DNA of 64,000 nt from a bacterium (GTDB lineage Bacteria > Pseudomonadota > Alphaproteobacteria > Rs-D84 > CACZYB01), in the NCBI GenBank assembly GCA_014803575.1, contig JAAVBO010000003.1, positions 87,165-151,164 of the forward strand. Reading direction: 5' to 3'. Positions 1 through 9,000 of this stretch are shown one piece after another (the stretch's first letter is position 1; every line of letters starts with the position of its first letter). The notes under the pieces were generated by a model. That model made no database searches. It saw only the letters and a program-made list of their open reading frames with translations, and had not been told where the DNA came from. Both the position numbers and the translations under genes were made by a program.

Positions 1-46
1 TGATTTTATACATAGAGATAACAATAATTTTGATAAGGAATATAGA

Positions 47-1147
47 TTGTTATCTGAAAAAATAGATGAAAAAAATCCTTCTGTGAATATTCGTGCTATT
101 GATTGTCTTCGCGGTTGTACTGGGTATGGAGCTTCTTTTTATGATGTAGATTATCGTATATATTATGATAATATTGCTAATAGTGATGAATGTATTATTT
201 ATAGAAGGAATAATGCAAAAATAAAAGTTAGGACTGGAGCTTTTGATTATAAAAAATTCTTGCCTGAAAATTCTAATGTGAAAACGGATGATGACTTTCT
301 TCTTTTAGTAAATAAATATAAAGAATATAACGAGGATAAAGATAAGGAATTGAAATCTTGTTATAAAATATATGAAGATAATTCTTTGACTTCTACAGAA
401 AAAGATGAAAAATATACTCAATGTGAAACAGATAACGAAAATACAAATAATAAGTTTGAAGGATTGTTAAAATCGTATATTTTTGAAGGAGGATTAGAAA
501 AGGATAAAAATAAGATACAATCAGTAATTGCAGATTGTAAACAAGCAGTTGAACAAGCATCAAAATATAAGGAAAATTATAATAAATGCAGTGAAAATAT
601 TAAAGGTAAAGTTGATAATTATAAGAAATCTATAGGATATAATAACTTAAAAGATTTAAGTTTAGGTTCATCATATAAAGTTGTAGATTTTGCAAAAGAT
701 GGTGTTATGATTAAAAGAGAATTTAATGCTCAAGAAATGCAGCTTTTTTCTTTTGTTGCAGCTATAGCAGGCAAAACTCCTTCTTCTGAGCAGTCATATT
801 TTGTTTACACAAAAGATACAAACTATGCAAATGGGGATTATTTCCGTAATAGAGGTTTGTATTATATAGAAGATGGGGTGTATAAATATACTACTGTAAC
901 CGGAGCAACTAATTCACTTCAGGCTTTAAAACCAACAAAATATAAAATAATAGATGTTAAAGAGAAAATAGCAGAAATAGAAAATAGTTGTGGTAAAAGT
1001 GATTATAAATATATAGATTTCTTAAAAGATGAAACAATTATACAGTGTGATATAACTGATTCTAACTATTGTTATAAGGATGGAAATAAGAAAAAGTGTT
1101 TTGAGGAAAAAGATGGAATAATAATACCTGATGATATTATGAGATGA
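47..1147 (+). CDS. Hypothetical Lys/Asp/Cys-rich protein, probably 5'-truncated by the window edge
   Basis: 366-aa ORF with a TTG start at 47. The same frame stays open back to nt 2, so the gene probably begins outside the window. No recognisable domain. Confidence 0.4.
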   Translation: MLSEKIDEKNPSVNIRAIDCLRGCTGYGASFYDVDYRIYYDNIANSDECIIYRRNNAKIKVRTGAFDYKKFLPENSNVKTDDDFLLLVNKYKEYNEDKDKELKSCYKIYEDNSLTSTEKDEKYTQCETDNENTNNKFEGLLKSYIFEGGLEKDKNKIQSVIADCKQAVEQASKYKENYNKCSENIKGKVDNYKKSIGYNNLKDLSLGSSYKVVDFAKDGVMIKREFNAQEMQLFSFVAAIAGKTPSSEQSYFVYTKDTNYANGDYFRNRGLYYIEDGVYKYTTVTGATNSLQALKPTKYKIIDVKEKIAEIENSCGKSDYKYIDFLKDETIIQCDITDSNYCYKDGNKKKCFEEKDGIIIPDDIMR

Positions 1148-1176
1148 TGAATATTAAATTTTTCCATATTAATCTA

Positions 1177-1210
1177 AAATCTCCTCATCATTCGGTGGGG
1201 AGGTTTTTAT
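1177..1210 (+). terminator. Rho-independent terminator after the first gene
   Basis: Hairpin ctcctcatcattcggtggggagg followed by a T-run. Confidence 0.5.
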
Positions 1211-1282
1211 TTATGGGTAAAACACATTATCTATAATTTATTTGTTAATGATTTTATGGTAACAAATGATAATAAAAAGTTT

Positions 1283-1305
1283 GTGTCCACGAGGGCACGA
1301 GGTTT
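1283..1305. repeat. 23-nt motif gtgtccacgagggcacgaggttt, left copy
   Basis: Matches 3764-3786 (gtgtccacgatggcacgaggttt) at 22 of 23 positions. Both copies are followed by a T-rich tract. Confidence 0.6.
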
Positions 1306-1453
1306 GTGTTTTTCTCAATAAAACTTCAAAATTTTCTTCAAAAACACCTAAAAACAGGCATTTTTCTTGCACTTTCTTGTGTTTTTTCGCTTACAAACCC
1401 AAAACAACACGACATAATTATATATATAAAACAAAAAACGAAAGGGTTTAAAA

Positions 1454-1705
1454 ATGTTACAAAAATTTCAAAACTGGCTTATCGCTAACAACTACAAACT
1501 TAATACTGCAAAAGATTATCAAGGTCGTATAACTCGCCTTTGTAAATATGAAAATATCAGCCTTGAAAATCTTATTGCAAACATTACTTCAATCTTACCT
1601 CAATACGAATTCGGTGAAAAATATTCTTATGGTAGTCGCTCTCATACAAGTGTTAAACAAGCTCTTCGTCACTTCAACAAATTTTTGAATCAGGAGGTAA
1701 GATAA
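1454..1705 (+). CDS. Small protein resembling a phage-integrase N-terminal SAM-like (core-binding) domain; possibly an integrase remnant
   Basis: 83 aa. The pattern FQNWLIANNYKLNTAKDYQGRITRL...KQALRHFNKFL fits the Y...L / ALR.FF.FL pattern of integrase N-domains, recalled from memory. Confidence 0.3.
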   Translation: MLQKFQNWLIANNYKLNTAKDYQGRITRLCKYENISLENLIANITSILPQYEFGEKYSYGSRSHTSVKQALRHFNKFLNQEVR

Positions 1706-1761
1706 TATTTCAAATCAAAGTAAATGTTATGTTGAAAAAGATAGAGGCTGTGAGGGTGTAA

Positions 1762-2076
1762 ATGGATATAAAGACTTTGAATGACGATTTTAGAAAAAGC
1801 CTTTTAGGAGGAAAAGTGATGCTGACCAGAGGTATTTCCAGTAAAGGTCAAAAGGCGATAAACGAGATTTTATATAGGGTAAAAACTTTTGATAATTTTA
1901 CCACGGATAACGACCCATATAATGAACACGATTACGGAAGTTTTTTATACGACGGTCAAAAGATTATGTGGAAGATAGACTATTACGATAAGGATTTAAG
2001 GTACTTTTCTGAAGATCCAGAAGATGTATCAAAAACTATTAGAGTTATGACTATTATGTTGGTGGAGGAATATTGA
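1762..2076 (+). CDS. DUF3768-like protein (plasmid/mobile-element associated)
   Basis: 104 aa with the motifs EHDYG and KIDYYD. I recall DUF3768 as carrying HDFG and IDYYD motifs; this is from memory. Confidence 0.4.
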   Translation: MDIKTLNDDFRKSLLGGKVMLTRGISSKGQKAINEILYRVKTFDNFTTDNDPYNEHDYGSFLYDGQKIMWKIDYYDKDLRYFSEDPEDVSKTIRVMTIMLVEEY

Positions 2077-2148
2077 AAAAATGTCTTGAAATTTGATTAT
2101 TTATTTACTAAATATATTTTATGTGAATAAACAAGAAAGGAGAATAAA

Positions 2149-2808
2149 ATGGCTGATAAATATGTAATACAAATAGCTAAAGAAGATGGAGCTCAAACTT
2201 GTGAAAAAGACGAAAATGGAGAGAATAAGAAAACAAGTGATGGTCGTTGTATAGTGGCATCAACGGATACAGAAAATCAAATAAATTTTGTATGTGATAA
2301 TGATAATATAAATTTAGAAGGTATTGATAAAAAAATAAAAAATAAATTACAAAATAATGAAAGCTTTACAAAAAAAAGAGAAGAGTATAATCAAGCAAAC
2401 TATAGAATAATTTTAAAAGATGTTGGAACACATAAAGAAAATGAATTATTTTTATTTTCCGCTAAATCAAATTGTATAGATTGTGAATCATTGTTTAGTA
2501 CTATTAAAAGTTATACTGGTGAAAAAAAATCCATAAATGAAGAAATAGAAAATCTTATAACGGAAATAAAAAATTTAAATGACAGTAATTTAATTTGTTG
2601 GGATGAATTTTGTCATATTGAAGAATTTTATGAAGATGATAATAAAAATAAGATCTTAAAAAAAATGAATAGATTATATATTACACCTAAAAATTTTGAT
2701 AAAGAAAAAGATATATTATGTTTTATAAATATAAATGATGAGGCCAAAAATGGAGAAGAGATATTTGACCCATTTAATTATGAAGAAATTCATGAATGTG
2801 AAAATTAA
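2149..2808 (+). CDS. Hypothetical acidic Cys-containing protein
   Basis: 219-aa ORF preceded by a strong RBS (aaaggagaataaaATG). No recognisable domain. Confidence 0.45.
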   Translation: MADKYVIQIAKEDGAQTCEKDENGENKKTSDGRCIVASTDTENQINFVCDNDNINLEGIDKKIKNKLQNNESFTKKREEYNQANYRIILKDVGTHKENELFLFSAKSNCIDCESLFSTIKSYTGEKKSINEEIENLITEIKNLNDSNLICWDEFCHIEEFYEDDNKNKILKKMNRLYITPKNFDKEKDILCFININDEAKNGEEIFDPFNYEEIHECEN

Positions 2809-2920
2809 ATTAAGTAATTATTAACTTATCCATAACATCACATAAACAAGCCAGAATTAAGCAAAACTAGTTCTGGCTTATGATTTACTACTAACATAAA
2901 TATGCTTATTCCTGCTTGAT

Positions 2921-3487
2921 TTAATTAAATATCTGATAGTCAAAAATCATATTGTCTGTACTGACAAGGCTCATACTTTCACTTTCAGACACTTCAAACT
3001 CTTTACTAATATATTCCGATATCCCACCTACATAATAAATAGGGGATACAACTATATTGTCTGGATACAGGCCGTTTAGTTTTACTTCTTCCCCATCTGT
3101 TTTTATATATACTTCAGCCTTTATTTTAGGTTGGATTTTTATGAATGCTTTTATCACATCGTCTACTGCGAACTTATCACTTTTTATTCCCAAAGCTACA
3201 TGAGCATGATAGTTTGTGTATGATTTACCTAGCTCTTTGACTACTACTAAATTAAAGTGTTTTTTGTATAGCTTAAACCAATGTGAGCCAAGCAATTCTT
3301 GAAACAGTTTATTAAATGTATTATGCAAACGACTGATAAGTTGAGTATCTGTAGTAGGAGTATTCACATACCAACGAAGGCTAGCAAATACTCCTTTGCT
3401 GTTGATAGTATTGGTAAGCCAATCCTCTATACTATTGATATTTTTGGTTTGTAAGATATTATGTCTTATGTGTTTTATCTGAGTCAT
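2921..3487 (-). CDS. Putative HUH-type rolling-circle replication initiator (Rep-like)
   Basis: 188 aa with an HUH-like motif (HYHAHVAL) and a downstream Y..K motif (EYISKE), consistent with HUH endonuclease motifs II and III. Assignment is tentative. Confidence 0.3.
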   Translation of the reverse strand: MTQIKHIRHNILQTKNINSIEDWLTNTINSKGVFASLRWYVNTPTTDTQLISRLHNTFNKLFQELLGSHWFKLYKKHFNLVVVKELGKSYTNYHAHVALGIKSDKFAVDDVIKAFIKIQPKIKAEVYIKTDGEEVKLNGLYPDNIVVSPIYYVGGISEYISKEFEVSESESMSLVSTDNMIFDYQIFN

Positions 3488-3755
3488 TATTTATATTAGT
3501 AATATATTGATTAGTATTATGTTATTAGTATATATTATTTTATATTAAAAGTATAAAAGAAATTTACTATAAGTTTATTTATATAGTATTTCAAAAGTCC
3601 GATTAGGTATCTACACCACCTCTTCTTTGACCAAAAAGGGCCTATAATATATAGAATTGAAATTTTTTTGAATTTTTACGGACTTTTTTAATAAAAATCG
3701 TAAGTTGTTGATTTTACAGAAAAGAAATTTTTAATTTTTTTATAGCGGTGCAAAT

Positions 3756-3787
3756 AAAACCTCGTGTCCACGATGGCACGAGGTTTT
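3756..3787. terminator. Bidirectional hairpin containing the right copy of the 23-nt motif
   Basis: aaaacctcgtg-tccacgatgg-cacgaggtttt: an 11-bp stem flanked by A and T runs. The motif copy lies at 3764-3786. Confidence 0.55.
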
Positions 3788-3975
3788 ATTTTCTAATTCC
3801 ACTAAAAATCACAAAAATAAAAAACAAATATTGTATATAAAGGGCATTTTTATACTATTTTTAGTGAAATTTATATAAAATTTTATATAATCTTGAAAAA
3901 TAATAAAATATCGCAATATACAAAATAAACACAAATAATATAAAAATCCTTTACAGGATATAATAAATAATTATA

Positions 3976-4533
3976 ATGAGAGATGTTGTTAAAATTATTT
4001 CAAGCCAGTATATAATTATGAAAAAAATATTTTTACTATTTTTGATTATAATTTCCACTCAAGTTTTTTCAAAAAGAAAAACTGTGGATAGGATTTATAC
4101 AAAGGAAGAGGAAGAGATAATCAAAAATTATCTTGGAACATTTTATTTTAAAGGTCTTAAACCGACAAAACATTTGGTAATAGTGCCAAGTGATCAATAT
4201 GGTAAAATAGCAGTGTTTGATTATGTAACCCCAAAAAGACATTTATGTACTCTGGAATTTGATGATTTTGATTTATATGAAGGTATGAATGCCTCAACTT
4301 GTATGTTTTTGGATTGTCTTGAACAAGGTGTAGAGGAAACTAGACCTGCACTTACAATATATATCATATATTGTAAAACAGAAGATGGAATTAAAGAAAT
4401 ACTTTTTGAAGAAAAGGAATATTTTGCAAGATATAAAGAATGTATTCGAAATAACTGTGATATTGACAGTTTATATCATCGAATCCCTCCACACAATTAT
4501 TATTATTACAGATTAGAGGAAAAGGGGGAATAG
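3976..4533 (+). CDS. Hypothetical secreted protein
   Basis: Signal peptide MKKIFLLFLIIISTQVFS, so the likely true start is ~4018. No recognisable domain. Confidence 0.4.
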   Translation: MRDVVKIISSQYIIMKKIFLLFLIIISTQVFSKRKTVDRIYTKEEEEIIKNYLGTFYFKGLKPTKHLVIVPSDQYGKIAVFDYVTPKRHLCTLEFDDFDLYEGMNASTCMFLDCLEQGVEETRPALTIYIIYCKTEDGIKEILFEEKEYFARYKECIRNNCDIDSLYHRIPPHNYYYYRLEEKGE

Positions 4534-4545
4534 TCCCCTTTTTTA
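4521..4545. terminator. Bidirectional terminator between convergent genes
   Basis: gggg-aatagt-cccc hairpin followed by a T-run. Confidence 0.5.
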
Positions 4546-5502
4546 TTTTGCAGTTTTAAGCATATTAACCCGCCATTTATTTCTGTCTTTACCTATTTGA
4601 TCTGATGTGCATTCTTCTGCTGCTTTTTTCCAATCTCTTGCTCTTATTGCCTTAAAAAATTCGGGCCAACCATCGCTTCCTGTTTCTTTTTTATCTTTAT
4701 CATTCCCGTCGTGAAATCTTTTACCCATATTATATTCCATATCCAATAGAACTTTTTTTACATTATATGGATAAGAGAGAAAATCTTTAAATTTTGCTTT
4801 AACTTGATCTAAATCTTTATATAGATGGTCTTTTACTTTTTCATTTATTTCTTCCTCTCTTATTATTAAATAATCATCACGTTTATATTTCTCTGCTTTA
4901 TAATTATATGGTTTATTCTTTGGACCATTTTTTCCCAGCTTGTTACGTGTTGTTATTATTTTATCATATTCTTCCATCTTTCTTTCATCTGTTACCTCTA
5001 TTTCGGTTTTCGGATCAACTAAATTTAATTTTACCATATCTTCTTTTTTTGCTATCATATTTCCTGCACCTATTGTTACATTTCCCTTTGTATCTGCATA
5101 CCCAAATGTTTTAATGTCTTCAAGTTTTTTTATTTCTTCTTCCATTTCTGGTAATAAATGGGTATATAGTTTCTTTTCAATTTCTCTTTCCCATTCTTTT
5201 ACTTCCATTGATTCCCTACTAAACATAGGGTGTTTTGGTGGATGAAGTTCTCTTTCACCGTTTGGTTTTTCATATATTAAATCTCCCCATATAGTTTTAT
5301 CAGCATCTTTACCAGACCAAGGTCGTTGAGTTAAATAGTCAGGTGCAAGACCTGAAACATCCTTTACTATACATCGACAATTAGGATGTGGTTTTTCCGG
5401 TACATCTTCAATGTTTGTATATTCAGTTAAATGTAAAGCTTTGCATGTATCACAAGATTTTCCTCCGTTGTCCGCAATCCAGATATAATTTACTTTTTTC
5501 AT
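4543..5502 (-). CDS. Fusion of a MuF-like Cys-motif module to a GH24 (T4-type) lysozyme; no signal peptide
   Basis: N-terminus SCDTCKALHL...HPNCRC resembles the conserved C-terminal motif of phage Mu F / SPP1 gp7 proteins. C-terminal half is lysozyme-like: E-x7-YADTKGNVTIGAG ... RDWKKAAEE...NKWRVNML. Start moved to MKKVNYIW at 5502, which has an aaggaaa RBS. Confidence 0.55.
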   Translation of the reverse strand: MKKVNYIWIADNGGKSCDTCKALHLTEYTNIEDVPEKPHPNCRCIVKDVSGLAPDYLTQRPWSGKDADKTIWGDLIYEKPNGERELHPPKHPMFSRESMEVKEWEREIEKKLYTHLLPEMEEEIKKLEDIKTFGYADTKGNVTIGAGNMIAKKEDMVKLNLVDPKTEIEVTDERKMEEYDKIITTRNKLGKNGPKNKPYNYKAEKYKRDDYLIIREEEINEKVKDHLYKDLDQVKAKFKDFLSYPYNVKKVLLDMEYNMGKRFHDGNDKDKKETGSDGWPEFFKAIRARDWKKAAEECTSDQIGKDRNKWRVNMLKTAK

Positions 5503-5534
5503 TTTATTTCCTTTTAAGTTATTAAATAAAAAAA

Positions 5535-5558
5535 GGACTAGTGTAGATACACTAGTCC
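5535..5558. promoter_or_regulatory. Perfect 24-bp palindrome (candidate operator) in a divergent intergenic region
   Basis: GGACTAGTGTA-GA-TACACTAGTCC lies between the divergent genes 4543..5502(-) and 5861..7309(+). Confidence 0.4.
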
Positions 5559-5860
5559 CATTGGTTAAAAAACACCATACCATAATTTAAAGAAGGATTT
5601 ATTAAAAGATAAGGACCTTGTACTATATATTGAAAAATAAGGTCAAAAATAAGGACCGTTTTTTTCTATCGGTCTATAAATCCTATTATATATTAAAATA
5701 GGAAATAATACAAATAAAAAAATATGTTATCATCTATTTGATAATACAGAAATATTTTAATTTGATTGTCTTTTTTATATAAATTTTCCATTTACAACAA
5801 AAACAGCAAATAAAAAACGGTCGTTTAAATTGAACAATTAATGAAATAAAAGGAGATAAA

Positions 5861-7309
5861 ATGAATAGAAAAGATATTCTTAATAATTTAGACCATGCGT
5901 TGGGTGAGTATAAATCTGCACAGTTGTTTGTAGATAATGAAGATAATGCTCAATATATAGTAAATATTGTTAAAAAAATTGATGCTCTTTATTACGGATT
6001 ATTTGATGGAATTGTGGCACCGAGTTATGCTTATGTTTCTAAAGATAAGGTAATGAAAGATAGACATGCCTATGATGCTGATTATGAAAGAGCTAAAAAA
6101 TATGCTGATGTTTTTAGGGGATTTGTTAATGATGTTGAGGTTAAAAAAACTTTTTCTTTGATAGAATCTTTGAAAAAAGAATTACAAAATACAAAAGACG
6201 GTATAAAAGGTGGTATAAATGGTATAACGGAAGGTTTTATTGATGCTTTTGTGAAATTGAAATATGCTTTGGGAGATTTGTTTGTTGATGTAGTTGGTGA
6301 GGGTGTAGAAATTGTAATGAATATAATGGAGCTTGTTGATACATTAGAAAATAAAATCTCTGAGGTTTTATATAATGCCTATAAAATGCCTTTGCACGAA
6401 TCTAAACTACCAGAAATTGAGACAAATAGTCATAATTATTATTATTATCCAGTTGATTCTTCATTAAGAAAAATAAGAATTGATTTTAGGGATAAACTTA
6501 ACGATTTTTATGCTCATAAATTAAACCATGCAACAAAGCCTGCTGACTTTTATTATGGAATTAAGGGGTGTCATTTTCATTTTATTAAACAACATAAAAT
6601 GGATCACAATGAGTGGTTTCATGCTTTTCAGATGGAGAGGGATGGATATTACGTACCTGATACTAATGAGTTCTATAATGAAGAAAATTTTTATTCAAGA
6701 CTCATTGAAAAAATTTTTGCCCTTATACCATATAAAGAAGAGCATATGAAATCAAAATTACCATTGAAAATTATGGAAAATATTTTTGAATATGCAGAAA
6801 TCTTGAAAAAAAACAGATTTAAAACAAATTATGATGGAAAGCAAGACTATGAAGGTCAAAAAAAAGTATATATTTGTTTATTGGCAAGTATTGTTGGAAC
6901 TTTCTTAACGCCTGCTATACTAAGATCACCTAGAGCAAATATGGAGTTTAGGACATCTTTGAGTGTTGAAGAATTGACGGATAATTTTGAAAAAAATCTT
7001 TCAAACCTTAAACAAATTGCTTCAAAACTATCTGAAAAAGAGAAATTGACTCCGGTTGAAAAGGATATTTGCAGTAAGTTAAGTGTGTTGGATAACAACT
7101 TATTTACTTATGACTGGGCTACTGAGATAAATAAAGATTATGATAAGGCAAAATTTAAGGAAGCAAAAAGACTTGCAAAAAATAATGACAGGTATAAAGA
7201 TGCCGAGTATATTCTTGCAGTAAGGAAGTTGCAAGCAAAGTATTTGGGTATGGAATACGATGAAAAGCTTGCTGATGGAATTGCAAAAAGAAAGTTATTA
7301 GAAAAGTAG
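5861..7309 (+). CDS. Hypothetical protein
   Basis: 482-aa ORF with RBS ggagataaaATG. No signal peptide and no recognisable domain. Confidence 0.45.
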   Translation: MNRKDILNNLDHALGEYKSAQLFVDNEDNAQYIVNIVKKIDALYYGLFDGIVAPSYAYVSKDKVMKDRHAYDADYERAKKYADVFRGFVNDVEVKKTFSLIESLKKELQNTKDGIKGGINGITEGFIDAFVKLKYALGDLFVDVVGEGVEIVMNIMELVDTLENKISEVLYNAYKMPLHESKLPEIETNSHNYYYYPVDSSLRKIRIDFRDKLNDFYAHKLNHATKPADFYYGIKGCHFHFIKQHKMDHNEWFHAFQMERDGYYVPDTNEFYNEENFYSRLIEKIFALIPYKEEHMKSKLPLKIMENIFEYAEILKKNRFKTNYDGKQDYEGQKKVYICLLASIVGTFLTPAILRSPRANMEFRTSLSVEELTDNFEKNLSNLKQIASKLSEKEKLTPVEKDICSKLSVLDNNLFTYDWATEINKDYDKAKFKEAKRLAKNNDRYKDAEYILAVRKLQAKYLGMEYDEKLADGIAKRKLLEK

Positions 7310-7381
7310 TGATTGATTTTTGTTGGCGTAAGGGATTGCCAGTTTTTAGACAATCCTTTTTTTGTATGATAAGAAATGATA

Positions 7382-8452
7382 TTAGTCTTCAGATTGAGGA
7401 TTTTGTTTTGGTAAACATCCACAGCAACTATCAAATACTTTAATTTGTTCTAGGAATTTCAATATCCTTTTTAAATCTTTGGAAGATAGTATATCTTTCT
7501 TATTATTGCTTAAATTAGATGCTAAATATTCAATAAGATTTTTAATAGCTATATCTTTATTATTGTAATTTTTTATTTGTTCAATAAATCCATCAATTCT
7601 AGCAAAATATAAATTTATAGTTCTTCTGTTTTTTTGTTTATATGCTTCATTCAAAAGAATGAATACTGGAGAAATACAAAAAACAAAAAAAGGTAACTTA
7701 TAAAAAAAACAAATTTTTAAAATATTTTTTAAAGAATTAATATCTTTATTTATAAATTGTGTAATATTATCGACTTTTGAAAGATATTGTATCAAATTAT
7801 AATTCATATAAATGAAAAATCCAATACCAATAAGTATCCATAAAATAGATATAAAAAACAATATTCCAAAAGCAGAATATGTGTTAGGTTTTAAAAGTGA
7901 AAATCTCTGTTCATTATTTATTATATTAGATTTATTATAATTGTTAGTATAGTTTTTAGCTGTTTCTGAATACATAAGTTTGAGTTGATTATATTTTTCT
8001 TCTGATTTTCTTCTAAGTTCTTCAATATTATCTAAATTTGTCAATTTATTATTAACTATGTTTTCCAATCTGTCTAATAAATTTTTTTGATTAAATTCTT
8101 TTAAATCTATCAATATCTGTTTCAATTTATCACTTTCTGTAAAAATTTTATCATAATAATTCTGACTCATATGAGCTATCTTAAAATTTCTAGATAATTC
8201 AGAAATTTTTTTTAATATTTTATCAATATTTAATAAATACTTTCTCATTGACATATGATCTTTTTCTTTATAAAGTTCAAGTGCACTGTAAGTTTTTTTT
8301 ATTCTTTCAATTTCAGAAGAAGTTTCTATTAAAATATTTTCTAATTCTTTCAATCCTTTTTTATTATCTTTAGATATCTTCTTTTTTAAATAATCTCTAA
8401 TATTATGTAAAAGGTCTTTTAACATAGTCTGCATAGTTTCAAAGGTATTCAT
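7382..8452 (-). CDS. Hypothetical coiled-coil membrane protein
   Basis: 356 aa with two hydrophobic segments (AFGILFFISILWILIGIGFFIY, FFVFCISPVFILL). N-terminal half looks coiled-coil. C-terminus CCGCLPKQ. Confidence 0.4.
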   Translation of the reverse strand: MNTFETMQTMLKDLLHNIRDYLKKKISKDNKKGLKELENILIETSSEIERIKKTYSALELYKEKDHMSMRKYLLNIDKILKKISELSRNFKIAHMSQNYYDKIFTESDKLKQILIDLKEFNQKNLLDRLENIVNNKLTNLDNIEELRRKSEEKYNQLKLMYSETAKNYTNNYNKSNIINNEQRFSLLKPNTYSAFGILFFISILWILIGIGFFIYMNYNLIQYLSKVDNITQFINKDINSLKNILKICFFYKLPFFVFCISPVFILLNEAYKQKNRRTINLYFARIDGFIEQIKNYNNKDIAIKNLIEYLASNLSNNKKDILSSKDLKRILKFLEQIKVFDSCCGCLPKQNPQSED

Positions 8453-8597
8453 TTTTATATTCCTTTTTTATTCTTATTTCACATATAGAATATAATTCCA
8501 TATCGAAATAAAAAGTCAAAATCAGAATATTGAGTATTTTTATTTAAGTATTTATATTTACAGATGAAATTAAGGAATTTTAGCGGGCAAAAAAAAC

Positions 8598-8611
8598 GTT
8601 CGTTATTTTTG
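8598..8611. repeat. Left arm of a 14-bp perfect inverted repeat (gttcgttatttttg)
   Basis: The partner is at 8751-8764 (caaaaataacgaac). The arms bracket a 139-bp segment containing the poly-C tract and a promoter. Confidence 0.5.
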
Positions 8612-8698
8612 CACGGTGCGATTCGTAAAGTTTTTAGCTATATTTTAATGTAAAAAATATCCTTAAATAGAATTTTATTTAGTAAAATCAATCATTTA

Positions 8699-8707
8699 CC
8701 CCCCCCC
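8699..8707. repeat. Homopolymeric C9 tract (candidate slipped-strand phase-variation site)
   Basis: Nine consecutive C in a roughly 28% GC genome. It directly abuts a TTGACT -35 hexamer upstream of the glycosyltransferase operon. Confidence 0.6.
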
Positions 8708-8736
8708 TTGACTTTTATTCCAAATTGGTATATTTT
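8708..8736 (+). promoter_or_regulatory. Sigma70-like promoter (TTGACT-N17-TATTTT) facing the glycan operon
   Basis: TTGACT at 8708-8713, a 17-nt spacer, then TATTTT at 8731-8736. Hexamers were read by eye in AT-rich DNA. Confidence 0.35.
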
Positions 8737-8750
8737 TTTATTGTTCATTA

Positions 8751-8764
8751 CAAAAATAACGAAC
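8751..8764. repeat. Right arm of the 14-bp inverted repeat
   Basis: Reverse complement of 8598-8611. Confidence 0.5.
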
Positions 8765-9000
8765 ATTAAAATTGAACAGTATTACTAATATGGGGAATAT
8801 ATTATCTGCAACAACAAAACATTATCAATTATATATTCCTCTCTTTAAATTAAAAGGTAAAAAATGGCAACAGAAAAGAGTAATAACGAATTAAAAGAAT
8901 TTTACATAGAAAACAATGTGTCTGATGAGGAATTAGCTGACTATTTATATTCACTACAAGATAATAACAAAGTTGTATCAATAAGATTGGAGAATAAGTA

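Follow-up and report, generated by a model that had tools for sequence, protein, structure and literature searches.

Which part of the DNA around a pair of 23-nucleotide (nt) repeats belongs together, and how might it move? The two copies, GTGTCCACGAGGGCACGAGGTTT (1283-1305) and GTGTCCACGATGGCACGAGGTTT (3764-3786), lie near the left end of the 64-kb stretch of bacterial DNA analysed here, which we call the window. An earlier note, made from the letters alone, took the 2.5 kb between them for an integrated rolling-circle replicon or satellite that ends at the repeats and encodes a Rep-like HUH protein. The copies indeed agree at 22 of 23 positions and bracket four small genes, and all four open reading frames (ORFs) were found. 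The conserved DNA has other ends. A block corresponding to window positions ~1205-3743 recurs in relatives between differing flanks, and it is this block that we regard, with rather more confidence than doubt, as the conserved backbone of a family of small integrative islands working by the mechanism proposed below. The host is a low-GC, uncultured lineage, probably of alphaproteobacterial gut bacteria.

The backbone would have five parts, namely a 28-bp repeat, an 83-amino-acid (aa) protein, a DUF3768 protein, a strain-variable cargo slot and a convergent HUH gene with a conserved block upstream of it. In the window they are laid out as follows:

1205-3743, no strand: conserved backbone module, the same block in differing flanks of relatives, borders accurate to about ±10 nt
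1240-1267, no strand: 28-bp inverted repeat ATTTGTTAATG-ATTTTA-TGGTAACAAAT, layout 11-6-11
1390-1418, plus strand: promoter-like CTTACA-17-CATAAT before the 83-aa gene (promoter scan, a consensus match alone)
1454-1705, plus strand: predicted stand-alone core-binding (SAM-like) domain protein of 83 aa, no catalytic domain
1762-2076, plus strand: DUF3768 protein of 104 aa (PF12599)
2149-2808, plus strand: cysteine-rich orphan of 219 aa in the variable cargo slot
2820-2887, no strand: junction segment of 68 nt between convergent genes, with the hairpin AAGCCAGAA ... TTCTGGCTT (2848-2879)
2921-3487, minus strand: predicted single-domain HUH endonuclease of 188 aa, Rep-class motif order, one catalytic tyrosine
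3566-3594, minus strand: promoter-like TTGAAA-17-TATAGT before the HUH gene (promoter scan, 10/12 matches, a consensus match alone)
3602-3654, minus strand: non-coding block upstream of the HUH gene, more conserved than coding sequence

The borders of the module were read from relatives, whose loci are given L numbers here. On the left, homology sets in at GGATA(A/G)AAAC (window ~1213, within ~1205-1213) in L004, L007, L016, L018, L025 and L029, and the genes beyond it are unrelated: type I restriction-modification, methyltransferases, a LlaMI-type nuclease, a Slam-type gene and a 581-aa gene. On the right, the border TTTTTTTAT (window 3742/3743) is found in L002 and L032, again with unrelated neighbours. 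Since these borders recur beside unrelated neighbours, and the module is conserved across about six genomic contexts, we place it at ~1205-3743. It reaches ~80 nt to the left of the left 23-nt repeat, which therefore lies inside it, and it stops 13 nt short of the hairpin that holds the right repeat, contrary to the claim of an element bounded by the repeat.

The 23-nt repeat is no chance match, because both copies are kept, diverged, at the two equivalent positions of the syntenic relative L001. A motif frequent throughout the genome, which the earlier note had named beforehand as speaking against itself, was not what we observed: at up to three mismatches there are just two sites in the 64-kb window, and 0 of 100 shuffled sequences gave matches. 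In the loci scanned, too, the repeat is confined to those two positions. A dispersed family of the repetitive extragenic palindrome (REP) kind was rejected on this ground. An exact-match scan of the Joint Genome Institute (JGI) metagenomes with the 23-mer gave no match, so that this collection appears to be without the lineage. Nor did blastn of window 1200-3900 against plasmids give a match, and an Rfam search of window 1-9000 at E values up to 1 returned chance-level eukaryotic families alone.

The 188-aa protein carries NYHAHVAL and, 60 residues on, EYISKE. The HUH and Y..K motifs reported for it are present, and only the string HYHAHVAL has to be corrected. In an alignment of 27 members with identities down to 19%, E85, H94, H96, Y159 and K162 never vary and E163 hardly does; the metal-binding motif is conserved, H94 and H96 standing in all 27 sequences. 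In an AlphaFold model (mean predicted local distance difference test score, pLDDT, 73) the HUH motif lies on a strand, and Y159, downstream of it, on a helix (154-163). HUH before Tyr is the Rep order in the HUH superfamily, not the classical relaxase order. The PF23343 profile (Rep ORF2/G2P) matches 21 of the 27 members in the same region (best E 4.6e-7). All named matches among viral fold models are replication proteins, of microvirus, parvovirus, CRESS-virus, ORF2/G2P and Vibrio filamentous phage type (E 1e-4 to 7e-3). Because of the invariant motifs, the sub-threshold PF23343 matches and these Rep-only named fold matches, we accept the protein, as predicted from its sequence, as a Rep-class HUH nuclease of an unclassified family, in agreement with the Rep-like assignment of the earlier note. 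E85 is a candidate third metal ligand on the neighbouring strand.

This family is small. A profile search of 1.84 billion representatives yielded 30 clusters, and a collection of 5.8 billion clusters contained 7. The proteins of the module had no match in PHROGs, NCBIfam or PADLOC, and tblastn of the 188-aa protein against plasmids and phages gave none either; the family alignment found none in IMG/VR, and searches of PDB sequences with the protein and the family profile gave nothing significant. The HUH gene has a ratio of non-synonymous to synonymous substitution rates (dN/dS) of 0.06-0.15, and its product is 94% identical between the window and L001.

Upstream of the HUH gene, the 3602-3654 block contains a mini-hairpin or dyad, GGTGTAGATACC (plus strand 3606-3617), and an invariant palindrome CTATA-N3-TATAG (3642-3654). 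Each of six HUH loci, among them L011 with a protein of 39% identity, has a single copy of the motif GTRGYGTRGATRCYTAAT, and the arms of the mini-hairpin covary (GGT/ACC, GGC/GCC, AGT/ACT, AGC/GCT). By this pattern of conservation the block is the best candidate for the cis site of the HUH protein, an origin or nick site. A dyad-symmetric operator would look the same.

The 83-aa protein had been described as an integrase N-domain stub. Its fold is like that of the core-binding domain of tyrosine recombinases, as supposed. The word stub does not fit, since its homologues are always stand-alone proteins of 82-89 aa and its gene has a dN/dS of 0.12-0.23; a pseudogene was rejected on the same two grounds, uniform length and purifying selection. 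The catalytic domain with the active-site tyrosine is absent from all of them. One homologue is labelled Alphaproteobacteria. The protein is probably a DNA-binding factor. The sequence around the promoter-like motif before its gene (1390-1418) is nearly invariant in the window, L001, L002 and L004.

A possible target for such a protein lies close by. The 28-bp inverted repeat is unique in the window, where 2 of 100 shuffles gave matches, and 18 of 29 loci have a single copy, in every case upstream of the 83-aa gene. It resembles the core site of a tyrosine recombinase (Xer/dif or integrase) and is a candidate either for a site bound by the 83-aa protein or for a recombination site. Beside the repeat, L024-L028 have an insert of 2.55 kb with an 810-aa gene; on its two sides stands a 17-nt direct repeat, TTTTTGTGGTAACAAAT, equal to the centre and right arm of the 28-bp repeat (L025 sites 3694-3723 and 6245-6274). 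This arrangement suggests a site-specific cassette insertion, as a single event.

Relatives also provide complete islands. L007 measures 7.0 kb between 50-nt direct repeats (84% identical) that overlap the 3' end of a tRNA-Gly gene. It carries a 507-aa integrase next to the tRNA, an HNH protein, two methyltransferases, an inverted repeat of the 28-bp type, an 82-aa gene and a HUH gene whose product is 54% identical to that of the window (BLASTP). L010 (7.76 kb, perfect 46-nt direct repeat at tRNA-Asn) encodes an integrase, a 70-aa ORF without family match directly before a distant HUH gene, T5orf172 and a KAP nucleoside triphosphatase (NTPase). L025 is a decayed island of 7.75 kb with a 19-nt direct repeat at tRNA-Val; an integrase fragment, a broken DUF3768 gene, the 83-aa gene and a serine recombinase remain. 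In L014 the order is HTH_17, HUH, T5orf172, SIR2 with HerA, and integrase. Integrase, tRNA gene and direct repeats thus occur together in L007, L010 and L025, and not in window 1-9000. In the relatives, integration takes place at tRNA 3' ends and defence cargo turns over at fixed junctions. The 23-nt repeats were considered as attachment (att) sites of such an island and rejected, the real att repeats of relatives being tRNA-derived and 7-8 kb apart. From the original replicon-or-satellite reading, the Rep-class HUH protein and the descent from mobile elements survive; a self-contained 2.5-kb replicon does not, as complete relatives are 7.0-7.8 kb long and have an integrase.

The 104-aa protein matches PF12599 with 112.6 bits against a cut-off of 25 (E 8.9e-33, profile positions 1-83 of 83) and carries HDYG and IDYYD, so that the profile search bears out the suspected DUF3768 from its HD(Y/F)G and IDYYD motifs. 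The description of DUF3768 as plasmid-borne was also right: the domain is found in 494 plasmid records, mostly alphaproteobacterial, with 46-52% identity between the window protein and plasmid copies. In L002, L004 and L032 the protein is 77-80% identical. For DUF3768, PF12599 and REP_ORF2-G2P no paper was found in the full-text literature searched.

Between DUF3768 and the HUH gene, the gene order (83-aa gene, DUF3768, cargo, HUH) is kept in other contigs while the cargo varies. The slot is occupied as follows:

L002: Fic, then HamA and helicase (Hachiman)
L004: AbiJ-type protein (AbiJ_NTD4)
L032-L034: homologue of the 219-aa orphan, 47% identical
L007: no cargo
L018: GIY-YIG gene, with the HUH gene truncated

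The 219-aa orphan of the window has no match in Pfam, PHROGs, NCBIfam or PADLOC and only five homologue clusters, the one in L032-L034 standing in the same slot. With a dN/dS of 0.87, against 0.06-0.15 for the HUH gene, this partner is, by sequence comparison, fast-evolving. A differing toxin-like gene always follows DUF3768 (window 1762-2808; L002 5480-6968; L004 718-1905; L032 422-1462). From its position, DUF3768 may be the constant partner of exchangeable effectors. The 68-nt junction segment always starts straight after the stop codon of the last cargo gene of the first slot; it is 87% identical to L002 5417-5484, between Fic and HamA, and is also present in L001 and L004.

Taken together, these parts suggest a mechanism in which we infer the nicking, replication and DNA-binding steps. 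Complete relatives carry the backbone, or a distant HUH homologue, in tRNA-bounded islands of 7.0-7.8 kb with an integrase and defence-type cargo. The integrase would excise the island as a circle, and the HUH protein would nick the covarying mini-hairpin upstream of its own gene, leading to rolling-circle replication or single-strand transfer. The 83-aa protein would act as a regulator or accessory factor bound to the 28-bp repeat, DUF3768 would form an addiction or defence pair with its variable partner, and the copies of the 23-nt terminator would insulate the module on the plus strand. In the window, the backbone genes are under purifying selection, as judged from the dN/dS of the HUH and 83-aa genes (0.06-0.23).

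What, then, are the 23-nt repeats? Each copy is part of a hairpin, and a third hairpin lies just left of the module:

1176-1207, plus strand: terminator-like hairpin of 14 pairs, then a T-run (terminator scan), kept in L001, L002 and L016; downstream of the left-flank gene (2-1147)
1275-1305, plus strand: left hairpin with the left 23-nt repeat, then GTTTGTGTTTTT (terminator scan)
3756-3787, no strand: right hairpin with the right 23-nt repeat, T-runs on both strands

The right repeat had been said to sit in a strong hairpin, and so it does: as DNA the structure reaches -16.9 kcal/mol (z = -7.6), a stability that none of 200 shuffles attained, and -17.2 kcal/mol on the other strand. The window has it in perfect form, L001 in a decayed one that folds as RNA on the plus strand only (-12.5 versus -4.4 kcal/mol), and it is absent from L002, L032 and L007. 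As RNA in the window, L001, L025 and L027, the left hairpin yields -11 to -18 kcal/mol on the plus strand and no more than -5 to -7 on the minus; L002 gives -17.8 versus -13.1 kcal/mol. Its stem is maintained through compensatory and G.U changes, and it is absent from L004, L007, L016, L018 and L029. T-runs follow both copies. The combination of stem, T-run and folding specific to the plus strand is seen in the window, L001 and L025, and less marked in L002. Because of the plus-strand-only folding and the T-runs, the hairpins look like terminators, and on these sequence features the two 23-nt repeats are probably copies of an intrinsic terminator hairpin acting on plus-strand transcripts. Evidence against the idea that the right hairpin could serve as a Rep nick site or origin comes from relatives that have the HUH gene: L002 and L032 lack the right hairpin, L004 and L007 the left one. 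A clean direct repeat around a Rep-like gene can thus consist of two terminators and need not mark where an element ends. An outward-facing TTGATT-17-TTAATT (3706-3743) at the right border of the module, noticed by eye and not listed by the promoter scan, is kept in L001, L002 and L032. It may be an outward promoter ended by the right hairpin.

The contig of a metagenome-assembled genome that holds L001 shows the window copy in its closest setting. It is collinear with window 1153-7367 at ~85-92% nucleotide identity and syntenic on both sides, so that the module stands at the same chromosomal place in this relative. An empty site, for which relatives were to be inspected, was found in none of them, and the close relative L001 has the module at the equivalent place. 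L001 lacks window 1752-2818 and retains the ribosome-binding site, the ATG and the last three codons of DUF3768. It was considered as an empty site and rejected: DUF3768 and the 219-aa gene alone are missing and remnants are kept, which makes it a deletion derivative. At L001 6670-6700 (minus strand) the start and end codons of DUF3768 are fused in ATGGAGGAGTATTAA (MEEY*), within a perfect 9-bp palindrome, TGGAGGAGT-ATTA-ACTCCTCCA. From 9 kb on, the window is ordinary chromosome (glycosyltransferases, UDP-glucose dehydrogenase, NUDIX, Hda), and its GC content is ~20-33% in the first 12 kb. Two states fit the window copy: a remnant that no longer moves, or a segment of a larger island that continues past the left end, where the window is cut off.

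How do other explanations fare against this evidence? A self-contained 2.5-kb rolling-circle replicon or satellite that ends at the 23-nt repeats, its hairpin being a nick site duplicated by Rep-mediated integration, would account for a direct repeat of 22/23 unique in the window, a strong right hairpin, a HUH Rep between the copies and the presence of both in L001. We nevertheless consider it very unlikely. The module runs past the left repeat and stops before the right hairpin; L002 and L032 have the HUH gene without the right hairpin, and L004 and L007 without the left; G.U pairs are tolerated in the hairpins, which fold on a single strand; the right one has decayed in L001 despite the 94%-identical HUH protein; and a different motif tracks the HUH gene. 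Somewhat better, yet still improbable, is the view that the module of ~2.5 kb (~1205-3743) is itself a discrete mobile unit, either an integrated rolling-circle plasmid or a HUH-driven rolling-circle transposon, possibly with T-rich targets. Its borders are identical in at least four left and three right contexts, both borders carry TTTTTAT or TTTTTTATC in the window, L001 and L002, and its joined ends would presumably unite the HUH block, a strand-specific hairpin and the 28-bp repeat in one intergenic region, an arrangement known from small rolling-circle plasmids. However, neither an empty site nor a circular contig was found, and all contexts belong to one island family, in which cargo turnover around a fixed backbone is an equally good explanation of sharp borders. 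At 27% GC a T-rich 7-mer says little, and partial modules are common: the 83-aa gene occurs without HUH in L016 and L024-L028, and HUH is truncated in L018.

With the island context kept, the HUH protein might be a relaxase nicking an origin of transfer, the island being an integrative mobilisable element moved by a helper. Single-domain HUH nucleases do act as relaxases in some mobilisable elements (Rep_trans/MobT-type), one family member weakly matches the MobA/VirD2 relaxase nuclease domain, and DUF3768 is mostly found on conjugative or mobilisable plasmids. Yet the order of HUH and Tyr is that of Reps, the consistent profile and fold matches are replication proteins, and no coupling protein or other transfer gene lies nearby, so that we grant this view no better a chance than the discrete unit. 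Loss of mobility is less probable again, by about half. In that case the 83-aa and HUH genes would be domesticated, or kept only beside a toxin or defence pair, DUF3768 with its variable partner; the shared chromosomal position in L001, the lack of an integrase in view, the differing toxin-like gene always found after DUF3768 and the purifying selection on the backbone genes all fit. Against it, DUF3768 is missing from L001 and L007, where the 83-aa and HUH genes persist, the HUH family is embedded in att-bounded islands, and the HUH-linked cis motif is intact in the window. We think it just as improbable that the core-binding protein, the 28-bp repeat and the HUH nuclease form an integron-like platform for cassette exchange without a canonical integrase, with the 219-aa orphan as a new anti-phage or toxin gene; its capture junctions would be at the 28-bp repeat, after the 83-aa gene and before the 68-nt segment.

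The island backbone that we favour has points against it as well. No integrase, tRNA gene or att repeat lies within window 1-9000, so that membership of the window in the island family rests on backbone homology, and there was no circular contig among the loci examined. The orientation of the module relative to the integrase differs between L007 and L025, and the islands are therefore mosaics with no single fixed design. Pfam gives no match to the window's 188-aa protein even at E values as high as 1, and all ten family members scanned singly scored 14-22 bits, under the PF23343 gathering threshold of 27.8. Finally, the two hairpins are 96% identical in the window and ~65% in L001, for which the terminator reading does not account; gene conversion is a possible reason for their likeness in the window.

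Set beside known systems, the HUH protein resembles the ORF2/G2P Reps (PF23343) and the single-tyrosine Reps of CRESS viruses, adeno-associated virus (AAV) and Sulfolobus islandicus rod-shaped virus 1 (SIRV1 ORF119) in having, as modelled, HUH on a beta-strand and a YxxK helix downstream, and in a nuclease of similar size. The invariant Glu nine residues before the first His is presumably comparable to that of AAV Rep. Unlike these Reps, the 188-aa protein has no helicase or other domain, and ten members fall short of the Pfam cut-off. In contrast to phage and plasmid Reps, the family is encoded in integrase-bearing chromosomal islands and was not found in IMG/VR or in the phage and plasmid collections. 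IS200/IS605 and IS91 elements likewise combine a small HUH enzyme with similar direct hairpins near both ends of a short segment, but no match to a Y1 or Y2 transposase family was obtained here, and the hairpins are neither linked to the HUH gene nor at the module borders.

As to the islands, they share with P4-like satellites and phage-inducible chromosomal islands (PICIs) a size of 7-8 kb, a tyrosine integrase at the 3' end of a tRNA gene, a small gene of HTH_17/AlpA type immediately preceding the replication gene (as in L014; its counterpart in L010 is the 70-aa ORF without family match) and defence cargo, which in the relatives comprises restriction-modification, Hachiman, SIR2-HerA, AbiJ, Fic and the KAP NTPase. 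P4-like satellites and PICIs differ in their replication gene, a primase-helicase where the islands here use a small HUH nuclease, and no capsid-redirecting or packaging genes were recognised in the latter. To our knowledge, neither a protein consisting of the core-binding domain only nor DUF3768 is part of P4-like or PICI elements. Recombinase-derived regulators are known in SPbeta (MrpR) and phi3T (SroF); unlike them, the 83-aa protein is without any remnant of a catalytic domain, and its binding to the repeat is putative. DUF3768 is full-length, as on alphaproteobacterial plasmids, and has a small serine recombinase nearby, as on both plasmids inspected. Unlike the plasmid copies, it is chromosomal here, stands between the 83-aa gene and a variable toxin-like gene and has been lost in L001 and L007.

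The small serine recombinase (resolvase/invertase type, 195-223 aa) lies 1-6 kb from the 83-aa gene in five loci (L001 11043-11714; L002 9653-9954; L016 3794-4381; L018 8656-9255; L025 244-831), and on both alphaproteobacterial plasmids inspected it adjoins DUF3768. The window's copy, if any, would be left of position 1. Among the genes around the module, the one on the left flank (window 2-1147; L001 7289-8809; L002 7502-8683) diverges fast, with 31-41% identity over local stretches, and its counterpart in L001 is a distant homologue; the equivalent position in L025 is taken by a Slam-type (SlipAM) gene and an 810-aa protein. The left-flank genes may encode variable surface proteins. To the right, a 346-aa protein encoded at window 4543-5583 (minus strand) weakly matches lysozyme/endolysin profiles as well as the C-terminal part of phage Mu F / SPP1 gp7; its gene is kept in L001.

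New anti-phage systems stem in large part from small integrative islands, and only for a few types is it known how they replicate and move. The present case links a rare, unclassified HUH family and a recombinase-derived DNA-binding protein, as we predict it to be, to tRNA-integrating defence islands of uncultured gut bacteria. Such islands can be sought by a sequence signature that combines the 83-aa gene and the 28-bp repeat with the HUH gene and the motif upstream of it. Candidates for new functions in defence or as toxins occupy the slot, namely the 219-aa orphan and DUF3768 itself.

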